DNA of 61,701 bases from Minisyncoccota bacterium (GTDB taxonomy: Bacteria > Patescibacteriota > Minisyncoccia > Phycocordibacterales > Phycocordibacteraceae): assembly GCA_038106525.1 (NCBI GenBank), contig JAYOEC010000003.1:1-61701 (forward strand), given 5' to 3'. The position numbers were made by a program, and so were the translations under genes. Every line of letters starts with the position of its first letter. Positions within the stretch are counted from its first letter, which is position 1. Under the pieces are notes generated by a model. It searched no databases and was not told where the DNA came from. It saw only the letters and a program-made list of their open reading frames with translations. Positions 13,522-19,660 of the stretch are shown piece by piece.

Positions 13522-14700
13522 CTACATCCTATTTGTGCGAGCCGCTCGAACTGTTGCAATATCCTCCCTTGTGTATGTCTTAATATAGTTTTGAAAGTTT
13601 CCTTTTTTAACACCAGTCCTTGCTGCAAGCGCATCAAGCCTTTCGAGTTCAGTAAAATCAATCTTCAGCAACTCGCCAATATTATAGTGCGTGTCAATCT
13701 CAGATGCAGCAAGCACCACTACTTCCGCCAGGCAGCTGTATATATCAGTCTTATTTTGCAATCCAATATTGATGTGAACATCTATGTTATCTGTCTGCAC
13801 TGCGCCGCCCTCAAGAACAAGCACATCCGGCCTCGTTTTAATTACCTGGGAATCCACATTTACAGGTTTTGCATCATCGACAACAACTGTCCCTGGCTTT
13901 AAATGCTCTGACTTAACGAAAGCATCCACCCTGTTCGTCGCAACAATTATTAAATCAGATTGCGGAAGCGATCCTAGATCCTCACAAACTGTCGCAGTAA
14001 CTGATGGGTTACTTTGTTTCATAATTGAAATAATTTCCTCAAGACGCTGACGCTTGCCTGATAGGTCAATAAGATTAAAGTTAAAGTAGCCAAGATGTGC
14101 AAGAATCTGAGCTGATGCAGATCCTATTGAGCCGGCGGCACCAACAATTGATACCTGCGCACTTTGAGGAGAAATCCCAACCTCCACTGCTCCACGGTGA
14201 GCAAGGTCGCAAACATTTTTGGCAGTAAAAAGTCTTCCTGTGATAATTATTGATTTCGTTTTGTCAGCAAGTGTTTTGCCACCTTTTGTAAGGGATGCTG
14301 AAAGCGCACCAAGTCCGATAAACTTTGCGCCCTTCCGCTCTGCAAGTGCCACAGTTCTCAAAAAACTTTTCTCTGCGTTGTCTCGATCATGCACCAAAAG
14401 CTCTGGGATTATTGGCGAAGAAATCATCCAACCAGGTATTTCCTTTCCTGTTCGATGATTTATTACTCCAGTTATGCGAGAAACTGTTATGGGCCAAAAC
14501 CAAAGCAAAAATTTAAATACAATATTTTTTGGAAATAGCTTCAGAAATGGGTAGTATCTGTATACATCTCCCATATCCCGCGGATGTACTACGAAGGCAA
14601 AACCCTCGAGCCTTTGAAAAGGGGGAAACTGCAAAAGCAAAAGATCTAATATTGCACTGAATACTCTTTTAAGTGTTTTCATATTTGCTTTTAAGCTCAT
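13522..14700 (-). CDS. acyl-ACP/acyl-thioester reductase-like NAD(P)-dependent oxidoreductase (cyanobacterial AAR-like)
   Basis: 392-aa ORF. By memory it is collinear with cyanobacterial acyl-ACP reductase: FVVHPRD, GLGALSASLTKGG, ITGRLFTA, Rossmann VSIVGAAGSIGSA, VLEGGAVQ, CLAEVVVLA. An alternative ATG lies at 14682. Confidence 0.55.
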   Translation of the reverse strand: MSLKANMKTLKRVFSAILDLLLLQFPPFQRLEGFAFVVHPRDMGDVYRYYPFLKLFPKNIVFKFLLWFWPITVSRITGVINHRTGKEIPGWMISSPIIPELLVHDRDNAEKSFLRTVALAERKGAKFIGLGALSASLTKGGKTLADKTKSIIITGRLFTAKNVCDLAHRGAVEVGISPQSAQVSIVGAAGSIGSASAQILAHLGYFNFNLIDLSGKRQRLEEIISIMKQSNPSVTATVCEDLGSLPQSDLIIVATNRVDAFVKSEHLKPGTVVVDDAKPVNVDSQVIKTRPDVLVLEGGAVQTDNIDVHINIGLQNKTDIYSCLAEVVVLAASEIDTHYNIGELLKIDFTELERLDALAARTGVKKGNFQNYIKTYTREDIATVRAARTNRM

Positions 14701-15376
14701 GGACCCTTTTCATTATAGCCCGGGCAGCAGCCTTATACTCCTCGACAGTAACCTCACTATCAGAGAGCAGGTTGAGTGATTCAGTAGTTATTACCTCCCC
14801 AAAGACAATCTTTATTTGGTGCTTTCCGATAAGCATCCTTGGCACGGTCAGTCCTTTGGTGCCAAGTATTGCAGTAATTACAATTGGTGCCCCTGTTGCA
14901 TGCGCAAGATATGCGACTCCCCCATGGACTGGGGCGTCGTTTCCGTGATATTTTTCCTCGCCCGCTTGCGGAAAAAAGTTGAAATCATAACCATCATACA
15001 CAACGCGGACATGGGTTTTGAGCGCCTTTGAGTAATCCTTGAGTCCACTAGGTGCAATAGGTGCACCGCAGGCAAGAAAGAGCGAGTCGGTGAAGATGTA
15101 CTTCCTCCAACCAGTCCAACCATAGGTTTTGCGATCTCGAGATAGCCAAAACAATGGGCTTCTTCGAGAGATCCAGGGCAGCGCCGCCCTGACAACGAAA
15201 GGATCAATTTGATTCGGGTGGTTTGCTACGATAATAACTGATTCCTTAATGCTACTAAGCAGCTTGTAATTCTCAACAGTGAGCTTACCAAAAATGTAAA
15301 GAAGTGGCGCAAGGATAGGCCAAAGCAAAGTTTGAACGAGTAACGGGATAAGAGCGTAACTTCGCAATCGCTTCAT
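14669..15376 (-). CDS. PlsC/LPLAT-family acyltransferase
   Basis: 235-aa ORF with an N-terminal TM segment and HX4D motif (VANHPNQIDPFV), plus a downstream FPQAGEE-type block. Has an ATGA overlap with the upstream gene. Confidence 0.7.
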   Translation of the reverse strand: MKRLRSYALIPLLVQTLLWPILAPLLYIFGKLTVENYKLLSSIKESVIIVANHPNQIDPFVVRAALPWISRRSPLFWLSRDRKTYGWTGWRKYIFTDSLFLACGAPIAPSGLKDYSKALKTHVRVVYDGYDFNFFPQAGEEKYHGNDAPVHGGVAYLAHATGAPIVITAILGTKGLTVPRMLIGKHQIKIVFGEVITTESLNLLSDSEVTVEEYKAAARAIMKRVHELKSKYENT

Positions 15377-16140
15377 GCTGTTTTTTGAGCCGGGTAAAAT
15401 TTATCCTCCCACTTGCGCTGTGCATCGATCCCATCTCTTATGTAAGGACTAAAAATTGCAAGGTTAAAAATTAGTTTGTTAACGATATATGCCGGGAACC
15501 TAACCGGTCGCTCAAAATCAACAAATAATACGACGCGCACCTCATCCGTGCGATTCCACGCTTCGTGTTCAAAAGAATCATCGAATATTGAAACCTTTCC
15601 CTCTTCCCAGTGCAGCACCTCTTTATCTACGCGTATTGCCACATCACCCTTTGGGATCACAAGTCCCAAATGGAGCCTTAGAACTCCATTAAATGGACCA
15701 CGGTGGGGGCGCAGATGTTTACCAGGGTCAAAGATTGAGAACATTGCAGTTTGAAGTCCTGGGATACTTTGCAGCGCTGCCCATGTCTTTGGACAAGAAC
15801 TAATGTTTTTCTCTGAGCGCACACCAAATGCAGTAAAGAAATAAGTCTTCCAACCATTGTCAGTTGTTATTGCTCGCACATCAGTTACGATATCCTGAAA
15901 GTTTCCCAAGTCATTTTTGCGTTTCAATATCCCCATGAGCTCGCTCCTTATTGTAGGATACGCTGCTTCAACATCTGAAACCCATGGGAATAATTTCGTA
16001 TCAAATACAGGATGATTTCCTACCTTTGAGTAGCGAATTGTCCAGCGCTCAGCAAATATAAGAATTTGCACCAAGAGCTTCGCAAAAAAACCGCGCCCAT
16101 CGGTGGGAAGTGGCGCATTAGCAGCTGTCGTTGGACCCAT
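15373..16140 (-). CDS. aspartyl/asparaginyl beta-hydroxylase-family Fe(II)/2OG dioxygenase (LpxO/OlsC-like)
   Basis: 255-aa ORF with FDPGKHLRPHRGPFNGVLRLHLGLVIP ... FDDSFEHEAWNRTDEVRVVLFVDFERP, matching the bacterial Asp/Asn beta-hydroxylase domain pattern. Confidence 0.75.
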   Translation of the reverse strand: MGPTTAANAPLPTDGRGFFAKLLVQILIFAERWTIRYSKVGNHPVFDTKLFPWVSDVEAAYPTIRSELMGILKRKNDLGNFQDIVTDVRAITTDNGWKTYFFTAFGVRSEKNISSCPKTWAALQSIPGLQTAMFSIFDPGKHLRPHRGPFNGVLRLHLGLVIPKGDVAIRVDKEVLHWEEGKVSIFDDSFEHEAWNRTDEVRVVLFVDFERPVRFPAYIVNKLIFNLAIFSPYIRDGIDAQRKWEDKFYPAQKTA

Positions 16141-16143
16141 ACA

Positions 16144-16644
16144 CTATCGTCCCAAAAAGAAAACACCGCCGACCCCTGCAAGCAGCCAATAAAAGAGGTA
16201 CCCGTCTGCAAAGAGTGCGCGGGTTGGTTCGCTAATCGCATATATTTCAGCAAGCGGTAAGAGATGCAGTCCGACTGCAAGAAACATGCCTGCGGTAACC
16301 ACCGAGAGGCCAAGGACCTTTATGAACCCAGTTCCGGATGACGGGATCCAACTTGCAAGCCCAAGGAATGCAATTGTGCCAATAGCAATAAAAATGAAAA
16401 AGACTCCAAAGTGCAAATACGGATTTGAGCCAATCGCATCAAAAAATGGGAAGTAGGTGTATAAGGGTATCGCAGCAAAAAGGCCGCCAATCAGCGGAAT
16501 TAATCTGTCTCTACCAAAGTAGAAAGCATACGCGGCTACCAATGCCGCAACAACAATGAATGCAAAAAAATCAGACCCGACACCGATAAAAAAATCCGCT
16601 GCATCGGTCGCCGCACCAGTTATATCCGGAACTGTGCTGTCCAT
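16144..16644 (-). CDS. hypothetical polytopic membrane protein
   Basis: About 166 aa from ATG 16644 (ORF-track start is 16689). Has 4-5 hydrophobic helices and no recognisable motif. Lies 3 nt upstream of the hydroxylase gene. Confidence 0.5.
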   Translation of the reverse strand: MDSTVPDITGAATDAADFFIGVGSDFFAFIVVAALVAAYAFYFGRDRLIPLIGGLFAAIPLYTYFPFFDAIGSNPYLHFGVFFIFIAIGTIAFLGLASWIPSSGTGFIKVLGLSVVTAGMFLAVGLHLLPLAEIYAISEPTRALFADGYLFYWLLAGVGGVFFLGR

Positions 16645-16654
16645 GACACCGCCA

Positions 16655-17173
16655 CTATAGCACTTTATGAGCACTCCACTCTGCCCCACTCTGGATAAGC
16701 AGCCAATCCATGGGTTCGTCCCACGGCTCTCGCTTCAATATCTCATCGGAAAATTGCTTTTTTCTGAGAATTCCCACTTTGACCCAATCTTTGTGTAGTC
16801 CACGAATGCATCGGTCATACCAACCACCTCCCCTCCCCAGCCGGGTTCCGGTGCGATCAAATTGTGTTCCTGGAACCAGAATCATCCCGCTACCAAGCAA
16901 GTTAATCTTTTGCGCCCAACCGATAGGATCCGATTTTTTATCCTGAGGGATAATCAAATTAGGATTCCCAAACACACCAACTGCTCTCCAGTCAGGCTCA
17001 TCCGAAAGCGGAGCATACCCGATCAGGGCTTTTTGCGCTGTGACCAAGCACACGAAATCACTTTGCAACATTTCCGGACTCAATTGCGCGAAGTACTTGT
17101 AAGTATAGATCTTCGACAACTGCCTGTTGCGCGTCGCCAACAGCTGCATAGTGATCAAGGCCCGGGGCTGCAT
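16655..17173 (-). CDS. 5-formyltetrahydrofolate cyclo-ligase family protein
   Basis: 172-aa ORF with VPGTQFDRTGTRLGRGGGWYDR, the G-x-R-L-G-x-G-x-G-Y-Y-D-R signature of MTHFS. The start is uncertain (ATG 17173, 17149 or 17071), and every candidate overlaps the upstream ATP-grasp gene. Confidence 0.7.
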   Translation of the reverse strand: MQPRALITMQLLATRNRQLSKIYTYKYFAQLSPEMLQSDFVCLVTAQKALIGYAPLSDEPDWRAVGVFGNPNLIIPQDKKSDPIGWAQKINLLGSGMILVPGTQFDRTGTRLGRGGGWYDRCIRGLHKDWVKVGILRKKQFSDEILKREPWDEPMDWLLIQSGAEWSAHKVL

Positions 17174-18107
17174 TTATCTCAATCACTGTATACGAATCTT
17201 CGTGCAGAGGAGTGTCTATTGAATCTCTCACTAAAAGATCAACTCCTGCGAGTCTCAGCCCCATATCCTTCGCAAGTCTTGCAGCCAATGCAACATATGC
17301 AGGGTTAAGAGTTTTTGACACATCAACCGCCTCTCCGCCAGTAGATAGATTGGCGTTGTCAAGAAGCCTAACGGGAGTGCCACATTTCGGGATAGAGTTA
17401 AGAGACATTCCGGCGCGGCGCAGTTTGCGCAATATTCGAGGATCGGACTCGTCTATGTGCGTACTCCTACCCTTCGCATAAAATCTATTCTGCATTTCTT
17501 TAATAAGGGTACGGATTGTAGATGCTCCATCTCCGATAACGGTGAGTGGGGTGCGTTCATAGGCAGAGATCAGTGATCCGTCAAGGACTACGAGGCGGTA
17601 ATCGCGACCTTGATGATACCGCTGTACAAGAAGTATCTTATCTTGTTCAAATACAACCCGCGCTGCTTCATAAAAATCCTTCTTTCCATAAACGACTGCG
17701 ACACCCTTCCCTTGCGATCCACTATTCGGCTTGAGAACTACCGGGAAACCGAGTGACTGAGCGTACTCATATGCATCCCTGAGCGTCCGATTCTGAGCCC
17801 CTATCGCCGTATGCCAATCCTTCCTAAAGAAGGTTTTACCCTCTATGGTTGGATACCCAGAGATGCGCATGAAGTAGCTCGCATAGTCCTTATCCTTAGC
17901 AATGTCAGCTGCTCCAACTGGATTTAGATCGACCGTATTGTAACGAAAGTAGCTGATTGTTCCATTCTTAAAAATGATTCGTCCCGCAATCCCCCATTCT
18001 GGTTCAATCTCCACCCGAGCGCCAATCCGGGGCGCAATATCAGCAAAGAGCCTCCCCATGAGATGGGACTCTTTTTTAGGCTTTTTAGGGCCCTGTTCAT
18101 TCGCCAT
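17058..18107 (-). CDS. ATP-grasp ligase (cyanophycin-synthetase / RimK-like ATP-grasp domain)
   Basis: 349-aa ORF with FPVVLKPNSGSQGKGVAVV, RLVVLDG and YTVIEINAAPGLDHY, the typical ATP-grasp nucleotide-binding blocks. Confidence 0.7.
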   Translation of the reverse strand: MANEQGPKKPKKESHLMGRLFADIAPRIGARVEIEPEWGIAGRIIFKNGTISYFRYNTVDLNPVGAADIAKDKDYASYFMRISGYPTIEGKTFFRKDWHTAIGAQNRTLRDAYEYAQSLGFPVVLKPNSGSQGKGVAVVYGKKDFYEAARVVFEQDKILLVQRYHQGRDYRLVVLDGSLISAYERTPLTVIGDGASTIRTLIKEMQNRFYAKGRSTHIDESDPRILRKLRRAGMSLNSIPKCGTPVRLLDNANLSTGGEAVDVSKTLNPAYVALAARLAKDMGLRLAGVDLLVRDSIDTPLHEDSYTVIEINAAPGLDHYAAVGDAQQAVVEDLYLQVLRAIESGNVAK

Positions 18108-18220: not shown

Positions 18221-19171
18221 CTACTTTTGAGCTATTAAAATCATTCTTGGCGAATGTACTGTGTACAAGGATTTATCGTAGTTCCCATACACATCCTTCA
18301 CAGAGAAACCAACATTGTGAAGATTGTCAGTTATTTCCTCAAGAGAATACTGGCGATATCTGCCCATGAAATCATCATGGCGTATGAAACGCCATTCATC
18401 GTCCGAAAGACGAGGACGCAGATCAAGCACAAATAATCCTCCAGATGTCAGATTGCGATATACATTCGCTAACACCTTCTGATCATCCTCTTTGTCGTCG
18501 AAGTACCCGAATGAAGAGAAAATAGACAATGCTGCAGTCACAGGTGTAGGGAGTGTGAAATCGCGCATGTCTCCTTGTATGAAGGTTCCAGGTCCTTTAA
18601 GGGATTCTTGAATCATGAAGGTAGAATAATCCACCCCGGTTACCGAGTACCCCTTCTCCGCAAGCGCGTGAGAAATGCGGCCAGTACCGCACCCAACATC
18701 AACGACCGTCCCAACAGGAATTATCGAAGTCAGGAAATCAACTACTTTTGGTGCGCTCGCAATATTAAATGTTGCGTACTTTGGTACATACCTTATGTCA
18801 AATGCTGTTTTCCACCATTCTGGACTAACAAGATTGCTTTTAAAATCAGGTCTGTGGTGGAGAAAGGTGCCAAAAAGATTCATGCAGTCCTTTTGATACT
18901 GCTCAGTAAAAATGATATGAGTGTGCCAGAATTGGTCTACATCGAGAGTCGGTATTTGTTCATTTAATGGATATTTCCAGCACACAAAAAGAAACCCGCG
19001 GTATGTATCGGCCACTTTCTTAGCCCTTTCCTCACTCCAACCAAGCCCGCGCTGTGCAAGGGGGAGTGACACCTTAAGTATGACATCTGACAAATCTAGA
19101 TATCTGAGACGCATTCGCATCTCTTCTTCGGACACTGTCATATCTGGTTTCCAGGTGGGTGAGATTCCCAT
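18221..19171 (-). CDS. GRDP-like (DUF1399-type) domain fused to class I SAM-dependent methyltransferase
   Basis: N-terminal domain carries YRGFLFVCWKY...FWHTHIIFTEQYQKDC...FGTFLHHRP. C-terminal part carries VVDVGCGTGRISHALAEKGYSVTGVDYS (MTase motif I) and FVLDL. Start taken at ATG 19171, 1 nt after the upstream stop; the ORF-track GTG is at 19216. Confidence 0.7.
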   Translation of the reverse strand: MGISPTWKPDMTVSEEEMRMRLRYLDLSDVILKVSLPLAQRGLGWSEERAKKVADTYRGFLFVCWKYPLNEQIPTLDVDQFWHTHIIFTEQYQKDCMNLFGTFLHHRPDFKSNLVSPEWWKTAFDIRYVPKYATFNIASAPKVVDFLTSIIPVGTVVDVGCGTGRISHALAEKGYSVTGVDYSTFMIQESLKGPGTFIQGDMRDFTLPTPVTAALSIFSSFGYFDDKEDDQKVLANVYRNLTSGGLFVLDLRPRLSDDEWRFIRHDDFMGRYRQYSLEEITDNLHNVGFSVKDVYGNYDKSLYTVHSPRMILIAQK

Positions 19172-19172
19172 A

Positions 19173-19469
19173 TTAAAAAGGATTATGGTGCAAATACCTT
19201 CCAAAAACATGATCACAATCTTTCATATATTTCTTAGTGTGCAGAATGTGGGCATGCCAATATTCGTCTATATTTTTTGTTGGGATATGTCCCCCACCGG
19301 AGTATTTCCACGAAACAAATAGAAATCCCCTGTACTGATTTTCGTATTTCAATGCGGTCTTGAGGTCCCACCCGCATCCACCCTTGGCCTTTGGCTTCAT
19401 TAGCCGCTTACGCAAGACTGTAAGGTCAAGGGCTTTGATACGAGATCGTGCAGTACTCTCTGAAATCAT
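19173..19469 (-). CDS. stand-alone GRDP-like (DUF1399-type) domain protein
   Basis: 98-aa ORF and a paralogue of the N-terminal domain of the next gene: YRGFLFVSWKY...YWHAHILHTKKYMKDC...FGRYLHHNP. Confidence 0.65.
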   Translation of the reverse strand: MISESTARSRIKALDLTVLRKRLMKPKAKGGCGWDLKTALKYENQYRGFLFVSWKYSGGGHIPTKNIDEYWHAHILHTKKYMKDCDHVFGRYLHHNPF

Positions 19470-19597
19470 TAGTTACAGTCGCAACCAGGTGCGTCGGGAG
19501 CGTCATCACAAATACCAGTCGTCCCCTCTATGGGAGTACCAGTCCATTCTTTTTCGATAAGCTTATTAGTTTTATGAAACTTTTCATCTTTAGACAT
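19469..19597 (-). CDS. unannotated 42-aa Cys-rich peptide (candidate precursor peptide)
   Basis: Hand translation from ATG (19597) to TAA (19471-19469) gives MSKDEKFHKTNKLIEKEWTGTPIEGTTGICDDAPDAPGCDCN. The stop overlaps the next ATG (TAATG). No strong SD was seen. Confidence 0.4.
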   Translation of the reverse strand: MSKDEKFHKTNKLIEKEWTGTPIEGTTGICDDAPDAPGCDCN

Positions 19598-19660
19598 AGT
19601 TATTTTAGGTTGTAATCTAATAATTTCTACCTATTCATCCGAACCGTAAAGTAAGCGGGC

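Follow-up and report, generated by a model that had tools for sequence, protein, structure and literature searches.

What is a cysteine-rich peptide of 42 amino acids (aa) doing at the head of a gene cluster that otherwise encodes two related domains and a methyltransferase? The question is raised by a three-gene cassette on the minus strand (positions 18221-19597) of the window, the whole 61,701-nucleotide (nt) stretch of Minisyncoccota DNA analysed here. Both domains are of the UCP032817-like type, akin to the glycine-rich domain proteins (GRDPs) of plants. In a very common arrangement, one gene encodes such a domain followed by a tail; in the cassette this arrangement is split over three genes. 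The 42-aa gene is the 'helix 6 plus tail' module of an ancestral protein, moved upstream of a truncated domain.

The first gene (19469-19597) runs from ATG 19597 to TAA 19471-19469, and its translation is MSKDEKFHKTNKLIEKEWTGTPIEGTTGICDDAPDAPGCDCN, with three Cys, as the first-pass annotation of this DNA had read it. Its stop codon shares one base (TAATG) with the ATG at 19469 of the second gene (19173-19469), which encodes a stand-alone domain of 98 aa. The stop of this gene (19175-19173) is followed after a single base (TAATATG) by the ATG at 19171 of the third, which extends to 18221 and encodes 316 aa. The program-made list of open reading frames (ORFs) places the start of the third gene at GTG 19216 (331 aa); the ATG start agrees with the orthologous fusion of locus L002, which is 63% identical to the window protein. 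Over 96 aa, the 98-aa protein matches residues 13-108 of the 316-aa protein with 45% identity (E 1e-31), so the two domains are indeed paralogous; the second copy (residues ~12-108) lies at 18848-19138. Residues ~145-316 (18221-18739, stop 18223-18221) form a class I S-adenosylmethionine (SAM)-dependent methyltransferase domain (Methyltransf_25, 2.1e-14; Methyltransf_11, 1.4e-12), and the proposed fusion is likewise real.

Is a reading frame of this size a gene at all? Tail-less close relatives of the 98-aa protein are rare, and every one with an available contig was included, giving nine independent loci: the window, L001, L002 (=L003/4), L005 (=L006), L007, L173, L174 (=L175), L176 (=L177) and L178. 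A short upstream ORF is present at 9/9 of them, with its end anywhere from a 4-nt overlap with the domain gene to a gap of 43 nt. Four of the loci (L173, L174, L176 and L178) were fetched after the pattern had been defined and serve as a prospective test. The upstream peptides are MSNEELFADTNARISDEWTGAPVEGKSGICDDTPDAPACR in L002, MFGSKENPAIRTARLIEAEGFGKVCSDGRSDCCDTCPCGEPIKP in L001, MSFTKTMELISAEWTQTSSSPEAECDNVQCKEGVCTK in L005, MFERTMELLSKEWNATTDRKKAKCDTGPSAKCDTGPMAKCDTGPR in L007, MSFDKTKELISTEWLAKASGAEAKCDMGTIESTCEKGACSNGAAKCDMGT in L173, MSEAYFKRTQERIQSEWTRRPSVMGVKADTCVGSGCMNNG in L174, MEGINIEQLSAQTNNRIQQAGFGNPNGPAKICGAEGPMDDPM in L178 and, for the C-terminal portion, ...CFELTRNRIKGVLHEMELGGNYKISKKAALCPKCYCNDNE in L176. 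The N-terminal motif F-x-x-T-x-x-[LR]-[IL]-x-x-E-[WG]-x-G is common to eight of the nine peptides, with only a loose match in L176, and the hypervariable C-terminal part contains Cys in all nine. In two peptides the Cys units are tandemly repeated, as AKCDTGP three times in L007 and AKCDMGT twice in L173. This organization, a conserved F..T..LI..EW.G part joined to a hypervariable Cys core that may occur in tandem, is that of a bipartite precursor of the type known from ribosomally synthesized and post-translationally modified peptides (RiPPs).

Selection acts on the peptide frame. Differences between the window and L002 fall 11/8/25 at codon positions 1/2/3, and the ratio of nonsynonymous to synonymous differences (pN/pS) is 0.36 in frame, compared to 1.7 and 1.2 in the other frames. 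Furthermore, gene callers predicted the ORF independently in L001, L173, L176 and L178. The opposite view, a chance ORF in a 5' untranslated region with the two domain proteins as the only real unit, could appeal to the lack of a Shine-Dalgarno sequence upstream of the peptide ORF (found at 0/9 loci) and to the lack of any peptide match in Pfam, NCBIfam and PHROGs. It is effectively refuted by the common motif and position at all nine loci, by purifying selection confined to the peptide frame, by the independent gene calls and by the homology of the peptide to a segment of fused family proteins described below; moreover, the downstream genes of these loci lack a Shine-Dalgarno sequence as well. 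The 42-aa ORF is almost certainly a real, conserved and selected gene that is functionally paired with the domain proteins.

A weak sigma-70-like promoter match (TAGAAA-16-TAAAAT, 19602-19629, minus strand, with only 9/12 consensus matches) lies 4 nt before the ATG of the window peptide and, together with the missing Shine-Dalgarno sequence, makes a leaderless transcript possible. A GCTTAG...CTAAGC-like palindrome is located 10-25 nt upstream of the peptide start in L002 (1614-1638), L007 (3375-3399) and L173 (23-47), and all nine peptide ORFs share an A-rich start context resembling ...AAATAACT-ATG; these elements may represent an operator and/or a leaderless transcript. A further ORF, at L011:1927-2172, ends in ...KKMKPVGCCCCGVF 6 nt before the gene of the fused-type member P0006. 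Judged from this locus, an extra Cys-rich peptide gene may accompany some members that are not split.

From what, then, does the peptide derive? Most family members are single chains of 130-220 aa, in which a domain of six helices is followed by a tail. Between the HHxP motif and the tail, fused members contain a conserved segment with the consensus FerTreLYeeEFGe. In the AlphaFold2 (AF2) model of the full-length relative P0245, this segment is helix 6 (residues 106-127) with a predicted local distance difference test score (pLDDT) of 95-97, while the Cys-rich tail is disordered (pLDDT 45-63). Against a profile of the post-domain segments of 228 fused proteins, each of the nine split peptides falls in the same register. 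Without its Cys tail the window peptide scores 8.6 bits against this profile, a value reached by 0/300 shuffles and 0/239 other short ORFs of the window. The shuffle p is <= 0.02 for six of the nine peptides and 0.067-0.113 for the remaining three.

On this profile comparison, the N-terminal 20 residues of the peptide are homologous to helix 6 and the C-terminal 22 correspond to the Cys-rich tail. The helix 6 homologue proper, a putative docking segment, comprises residues 7-20 (FHKTNKLIEKEWTG, 19538-19579, minus strand), and the Cys/Asp-rich tail, variable and core-like across the nine loci, comprises residues 21-42 (TPIEGTTGICDDAPDAPGCDCN, 19472-19537, minus strand). The Lys/Glu-rich N-terminal half is thus not a generic leader, being homologous to helix 6 of the full-length family. 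Both window domains end before that helix: the 98-aa protein terminates at ...LHHNPF-stop, just past HHxP, and the 316-aa protein reads ...LHHRPDFKSN... and continues into the methyltransferase. Neither has the six-helix, one-chain architecture of PF27765, with its helix FxxTxxLYxxEFG and tail. As the peptide is homologous to helix 6 plus tail and both domains stop short of it, gene fission is demonstrated.

To which family do the domains belong? The first-pass annotation had placed them in the GRDP-like family (PF07173, formerly DUF1399). This placement stands at the superfamily level, on structure, and fails at the family level, where the assigned family is PF27765 (UCP032817-like). In the Pfam scan that had been suggested, the methyltransferase matches appeared as expected, but PF07173 reached only 16.1 bits (98-aa protein) and 20.9 bits (fusion) against a gathering threshold of 22.7; these matches cover only profile positions ~99-143 of 143, the WHxH...DC...HH region. 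PF27765 is the precomputed annotation of the 98-aa protein (P0001), of the fusion's orthologue in L002 and of all homologues; many relatives are annotated with both PF27765 and PF07173. A profile search of 1.84 billion cluster representatives yields 12,191 clusters (50% identity) at E <= 1e-3 and 3,691 at E <= 1e-10.

The AF2 model of the 98-aa protein (pLDDT 90.3) contains five helices, and that of P0245 (pLDDT 94-97 over residues 11-130) contains six. Neither model has a solved relative in the PDB (best Foldseek E 3.7 and 2.9), and sequence profiles of the domain gave 0 matches to solved structures. Against BFVD, Foldseek matches the P0245 model, as a relative of the window protein, to a Harvfovirus 'Glycine-rich domain-containing protein-like' model (E 3e-5, probability 1.00, template modelling scores 0.58/0.71, root-mean-square deviation 3.2). 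This match to giant-virus GRDP-like models indicates that the GRDP relationship is real at the superfamily level. Neither the domain nor the peptide has a match in NCBIfam, PHROGs or PADLOC. In the searchable literature, whose coverage is incomplete, nothing was found on UCP032817, DUF1399/GRDP is linked to plant phenotypes only, PF07173 appears in a single soybean genome-wide association paper unrelated to bacteria, and no paper ties the domain to peptide modification, which agrees with the earlier statement that no described RiPP class uses it.

Both window copies carry the motif set W34, Y46, D68-x-x-W-H-x-H-I-L-x-T, Y81-x-x-D-C, G90 and H-H-x-P. Over the 411 member sequences used for all tail and conservation counts, Y46, D68, W71, H72, H74, T78, Y81, D84, C85, G90, H94, H95 and P97 are 96-100% conserved, whatever the type of tail. 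The four conserved His and one Cys noticed earlier are H72, H74, H94, H95 and C85, and D68 and D84 are conserved to the same degree. From this pattern we infer that a scaffold which merely binds peptide is a poorer fit to the invariant residues than a centre for catalysis or metal binding, or a structural zinc site, and a metal centre in the domain is predicted on the same grounds.

The tails are as variable as the domain is constant. At least two Cys follow the domain in 257/411 members, 23/411 carry Cys-free Ser repeats and 25/411 are tail-less. Many fused tails consist of tandem units built around one Cys or one Ser. The Cys-type units, of ~10-13 residues, include KPAYCAITPGAEA (with 22 Cys in Paraburkholderia terricola LMG 20594, L027), AAYCGASVKAQE, AWCGAAV, TALCIGENPDAR and AAFCAR, and the Ser-type units AAYSSAAIRAD, AAMSNAAIRAD and AAVSSIAIR follow the same pattern with Ser. 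Other members end in short terminal boxes, among them ARGCSPQRCP (27 loci) and SSCACRVPGACK (Acinetobacter, with L083-L089 from A. lwoffii). A (V/E)-R-P-(S/T)-L motif ends many fused tails after the Cys-rich stretch (P0035, P0043, P0129, P0146, P0181, P0186, P0190, P0245 and others), and the split peptides do not have it. Repeat-tail members (AAYCG.../AAYSSAAIR... units) are followed at 78 loci, including L013 (4955-8008), L018, L033 and L059, by a co-oriented gene, ~140 nt downstream, for a large CHASE-PAS-HisKA_3 sensor histidine kinase. The arrangement suggests a connection with signalling, although common ancestry of many of these Burkholderiales loci may inflate the count.

Such a pairing of an invariant domain with a variable tail raises the possibility that the domain itself is the key small metallo-enzyme (D/H/H/D/C/H/H), which would modify the Cys or Ser of the tail, acting in cis where the two are fused and in trans where the peptide is separate, with the methyltransferase as an optional addition. 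We hold this as a tentative alternative that overlaps with our preferred explanation. The ligand-type polar residues are invariant across the 411 members whatever tail follows, no pairing other than that of domain and tail is constant, and most family members as well as 3/9 split loci have no adjacent methyltransferase. The tandem single-Cys or single-Ser units, each with a preceding aromatic or hydrophobic residue, furthermore resemble multi-core substrates. On the other hand, an all-helical fold of ~100-130 residues without a solved relative offers no precedent for catalysis, the conserved His and Cys could form a structural zinc site, and catalysis is deduced here from conserved residues instead of from a cofactor or chemistry.

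How regularly does a methyltransferase accompany the module? The linkage seen in the window recurs at 6/9 split loci and, independently, in the 'CSPQRCP' clade. It takes the form of a fusion to the domain in the window, in L002 and in P0127, a protein from the search of representatives, and of an adjacent or overlapping gene in L001, L005, L007 and L173; L174, L176 and L178 have no methyltransferase. The methyltransferases of the window type and the L001 type show no detectable relation by BLASTP, which makes recruitment look recurrent. Clustering of neighbouring genes brought out a third class I methyltransferase, whose gene overlaps that of the domain in the 27 ARGCSPQRCP loci and is followed there by genes for a TauD-like dioxygenase and a UvrA-like ABC ATPase. 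Three distinct recruitments imply that methylation has been coupled repeatedly to the domain/tail module, and the recurrence of the linkage is established. The Cys-Asp dipeptide occurs in 6/6 methyltransferase-linked split peptides and in 0/3 others, a small sample. A phmmer search with the four methyltransferases of the clade found none of them in 160 genome and metagenome loci.

The ARGCSPQRCP operons (L020-L022, L031, L036, L037, L042, L052 and others; L008:6001-12483 adds a pentapeptide-repeat protein) contain genes of the kinds that give self-resistance to natural products targeting DNA or gyrase. In the sponge-metagenome locus L176 (3802-4608; also L177:525-1331), a gene for a 268-aa protein without a Pfam match overlaps the domain gene in the position of the methyltransferase, and may encode an alternative tailoring partner. 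A 2-oxoglutarate oxygenase as recurrent partner in the split clade was considered and rejected. The 218-aa protein of L001 (HxD..H) is unlike the beta-hydroxylase-family gene of the window (15373-16140) and has no Pfam match even at E <= 5, and no oxygenase is called in the other split loci; TauD occurs in the CSPQRCP clade. An anti-phage defence system was rejected likewise, as only the methyltransferase region has a PADLOC match (mad2, 9e-18), which reflects generic methyltransferase similarity.

The nearest solved relatives of the window methyltransferase are 9ri2 (1e-16), the N,N-dimethyltransferase 3bxo (3e-11) and CypM 7wzg (5.6e-9), and its best NCBIfam match is NF041820 daptide_MTase (41.7 bits against a cut-off of 175). 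It also matches TehB at 22.7 bits against a Pfam cut-off of 20.4, in the N-terminal Rossmann part only. The TehB match brings up a further explanation, the handling of metals or metalloids (As, Se, Te), with the Cys/Asp tail and the His-rich domain as chaperone, buffer or carrier and the methyltransferase methylating the metalloid in the manner of TehB or ArsM. The Cys/Asp/Gly-rich tails would fit such a role, as would the TehB match just above its cut-off, weak TehB marks on the L173 and L002 methyltransferases, and weak ArsM, TPMT and selenoprotein-methyltransferase matches of the window enzyme. These matches, however, cover the generic SAM-binding region only and lie far under the NCBIfam cut-offs. 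Moreover, cores are hypervariable where conserved chelating motifs would be expected, and one Cys per ~12-aa unit is a poor design for chelation. The 23 relatives with Ser-only repeat tails argue against a purely metal-binding role for the whole family, and we regard this explanation as quite improbable.

How might the three products work together? We postulate a composite mechanism, for and against which we see the case as evenly balanced: the peptide would dock by fold complementation, and its Cys/Asp tail would be presented and covalently modified. After coupled translation, the amphipathic peptide helix would dock on a domain that lacks helix 6 and complete its fold, much as a RiPP leader is bound by a recognition domain, here through fold complementation. 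Docking on the methyltransferase-fused copy would hold the Cys/Asp-rich tail at the methyltransferase active site for methylation, with Cys-S, an Asp or C-terminal carboxylate, or an amine as candidate sites. The invariant cluster D68, H72, H74, D84, C85, H94 and H95 probably binds a metal or catalyses a further change on the tail Cys, and the stand-alone 98-aa copy could serve as a second docking or catalytic site. The product would be a modified, probably intracellular, short peptide or peptide-protein complex, and the cassette behaves like a mobile accessory unit carried by Patescibacteria and their phages. By analogy, the whole looks like a RiPP-like cassette of precursor and tailoring genes in which the domain family and the logic of recognition are both new; the methyltransferase, genetically linked to the peptide, is the putative tailoring enzyme. 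The RiPP-like layout proposed earlier holds in so far as a short precursor gene, here overlapping the next gene by 1 nt, heads the arrangement at 9/9 loci.

Several observations weigh against docking and modification. The missing half of the RiPP-like layout is one of them: no protease, exporter or immunity gene was found among the flanking genes of the window or the neighbours at the eight other loci, the latter judged by precomputed Pfam marks, with many neighbours carrying no Pfam match. The peptide scores against helix 6 are low individually (-0.7 to 8.6 bits), and three peptides are not significant on their own. That the peptide binds either domain is something we infer. The 98-aa protein models confidently without helix 6, which implies that complementation is not needed for folding in silico, and the domain may be an enzyme, a site for metal or nothing more than a scaffold. 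L174, L176 and L178 show that the module can do without methylation, and since the closest relatives of the methyltransferase are generic class I enzymes with amines and small molecules as substrates, its own target may be a different one.

A split structural protein would accommodate part of this evidence. The peptide would then stay bound for good as a subunit and so re-establish the ancestral fold, its tail would be a non-substrate with redox-active or regulatory Cys or a partner-binding role, and the methyltransferase, recruited by the domain, would act on another cellular target. The homology of the peptide to helix 6 plus tail is equally expected under this model. In addition, other proteins join the domain to unrelated enzymes or modules (a GHMP kinase in P0016, a ubiquitin-like one in P0117), one report describes plant GRDP1 as acting by protein-protein interaction (PMC13001069), and repeat-tail genes adjoin sensor kinases at the 78 loci mentioned above. 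We nevertheless consider it unlikely, as tail hypervariability, the multiplication of tandem units and the equivalence of Cys and Ser are typical of substrates or core peptides, and three unrelated methyltransferases have been recruited to one module. The domain behaves as a module combined with different enzymes; among its fusions, the ubiquitin-like domains of P0117 are of the Rad60-SLD type, and a fusion of this kind also occurs in a Terrestrivirus protein (BFVD A0A3G4ZPD8).

Returning to docking and modification of the peptide, a broader extrapolation can be framed, which we put forward as possible but doubtful. The UCP032817/GRDP-like domain could be a hitherto unrecognised, self-contained peptide-modifying (metallo)enzyme or recognition fold that defines a new, extremely widespread class of ribosomal peptides, found in thousands of bacterial lineages. 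Most bacteria would make the precursor as a Cys/Ser tail with several cores on the domain itself, whereas Patescibacteria and their phages would make it as a separate peptide, recognised before methylation because it completes the helical bundle.

Where does the cassette occur, and how did it reach this genome? The window DnaK is 76-83% identical to Patescibacteria proteins of the Parcubacteria, Paceibacteria and Kaiserbacteria types, and the 687-kb scaffold of L001 encodes a DnaK that is 78% identical to it. The two closest relatives (DnaK 85% and 83%) share the rps/rpl-grpE-dnaK-dnaJ synteny and have different genes after dnaJ, with no homologue of the domain within 20 kb. The contigs of L005/6, L007 and L173 are phage-like, with an ERF recombinase, an M23 peptidase, a holin and many small genes. 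The conserved trio of genes is hence present in cellular and phage-like settings, and the cassette is a patchy accessory module, an insertion, of Patescibacteria and their phages. Its low GC content is consistent with this: the A+T-richness noted earlier corresponds to a GC content of 0.434, compared to 0.505 +/- 0.032 in windows of the same size, within the lowest 3.6%. The upstream boundary is a terminator-like hairpin (TGCGCAATCATTGCGCA plus a T-run, 19686-19670, minus strand) that closes the grpE-dnaK-dnaJ unit, where a hairpin after dnaJ had been described.

Downstream of the cassette lies a variable block (13522-18107, minus strand) that is unusual in a Patescibacteria genome. It comprises a stand-alone cyanophycin-synthetase-like ATP-grasp ligase (17058-18107), overlapped by a short 5-formyl-tetrahydrofolate cyclo-ligase-like ORF (16655-17173), a membrane protein, an Asp/Asn beta-hydroxylase-family protein (15373-16140, 171 bits), an acyltransferase and an NAD-binding dehydrogenase-like protein. 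In the relative L182, only the latter two have counterparts after dnaJ. The ATP-grasp gene was rejected as a member of the cassette, since no other locus contains it and it possesses a separate promoter-like site.

The domain family as a whole reaches much further. It is found in the cultivable bacteria Paraburkholderia, Acinetobacter lwoffii, Ralstonia, Pseudomonas savastanoi and Vibrio parahaemolyticus (P0190), and also in archaeal-labelled metagenome-assembled genomes (Pacearchaeota, Nanoarchaeia), giant viruses and plants. A scan of viral contigs gave one distant locus only, and an annotated phage collection gave 4 weak matches. Plasmid or megaplasmid records carrying the family number 134, of which 94 are from Ralstonia and others from Pseudomonas savastanoi and amygdali, Azospirillum and Cupriavidus; examples are NZ_CP078141.1 (20975-21541, L179) and NZ_CP080769.1 (225153-225767, L180). 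The plasmid family genes in the rows listed are annotated as 'hypothetical protein' or have no gene call, and the hosts are tractable for genetics.

Why does a locus of three small genes matter? It belongs to a very large domain family for which no solved structure, mechanism or bacterial literature was found, within incomplete literature coverage. The split cassette places the two modules of this family in different genes and thereby reveals the 'tail' as a partner of the 'domain', in a three-gene system that is directly testable. Even read conservatively, it documents, in a clean natural case, a gene fission accompanied by reordering. Should the tail prove to be a substrate, the cassette would stand for a RiPP-like class of a new kind, recognised in an unusual way, by fold complementation, and if the broader peptide class exists, it would provide a first biochemical handle on the GRDP proteins of plants and giant viruses. 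To our knowledge, candidate peptide-product systems are few in the gene-poor Patescibacteria and their phages, and the window cassette would be one.

How does the cassette compare with known systems? Borosins (OphMA-type) consist of a methyltransferase fused to its own core peptide, and 'split' borosins have a separate precursor. The existence of fused and split forms is common to both, as is SAM-dependent methylation of a C-terminal tail, which is only proposed here. Borosin methyltransferases, however, have another fold and methylate backbone amides, whereas the window enzyme is of the class I Rossmann type and the conserved partner in its cassette is an unrelated helical domain; no borosin-type family in Pfam or NCBIfam matches the window proteins. 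Systems with NHLP- or Nif11-type leaders similarly join a conserved, protein-like N-terminal module to a short, hypervariable, Cys-rich C-terminal core, and fusions of a RiPP recognition element (RRE, PqqD-like) to a tailoring enzyme resemble the fusion of domain and methyltransferase. No similarity to NHLP, Nif11 or RRE was found in sequence or fold, and the window cassette has no lanthipeptide synthetase, radical SAM or YcaO partner. In contrast to the pairing of a beta-strand with a winged helix in RREs, recognition here would complete a helical bundle.

CypM, the N-terminal dimethyltransferase of linaridins, and the daptide methyltransferase fall into the same broad class I subfamily as the window enzyme. 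The daptide match is nevertheless far under the equivalog cut-off, sugar and small-molecule methyltransferases score equally well, and there are no linaridin or daptide genes near the cassette. BURP-domain cyclases (burpitides) and fungal UstYa/DUF3328 proteins are His/Cys-motif domains that act on tandem core peptides in fused and split forms. By analogy, the present family likewise has a small invariant His/Cys domain fused to a tandem short core motif with an aromatic residue, and is shared with plants. Folds and motifs are unrelated, and in BURP proteins the cores stand on the N-terminal side of the domain and receive cross-links at Tyr/Trp with copper, so the analogy is functional speculation. 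The closest likeness in domain is to PF27765/PF07173 itself, including plant GRDP1/2: the domain is the same, and bacterial members, like plant ones, carry a low-complexity Gly/Cys-rich C-terminal region. The window cassette differs from these in having two copies of the domain, both cut short ahead of helix 6 and one of them joined to a methyltransferase, and in encoding the tail module by a gene of its own upstream.

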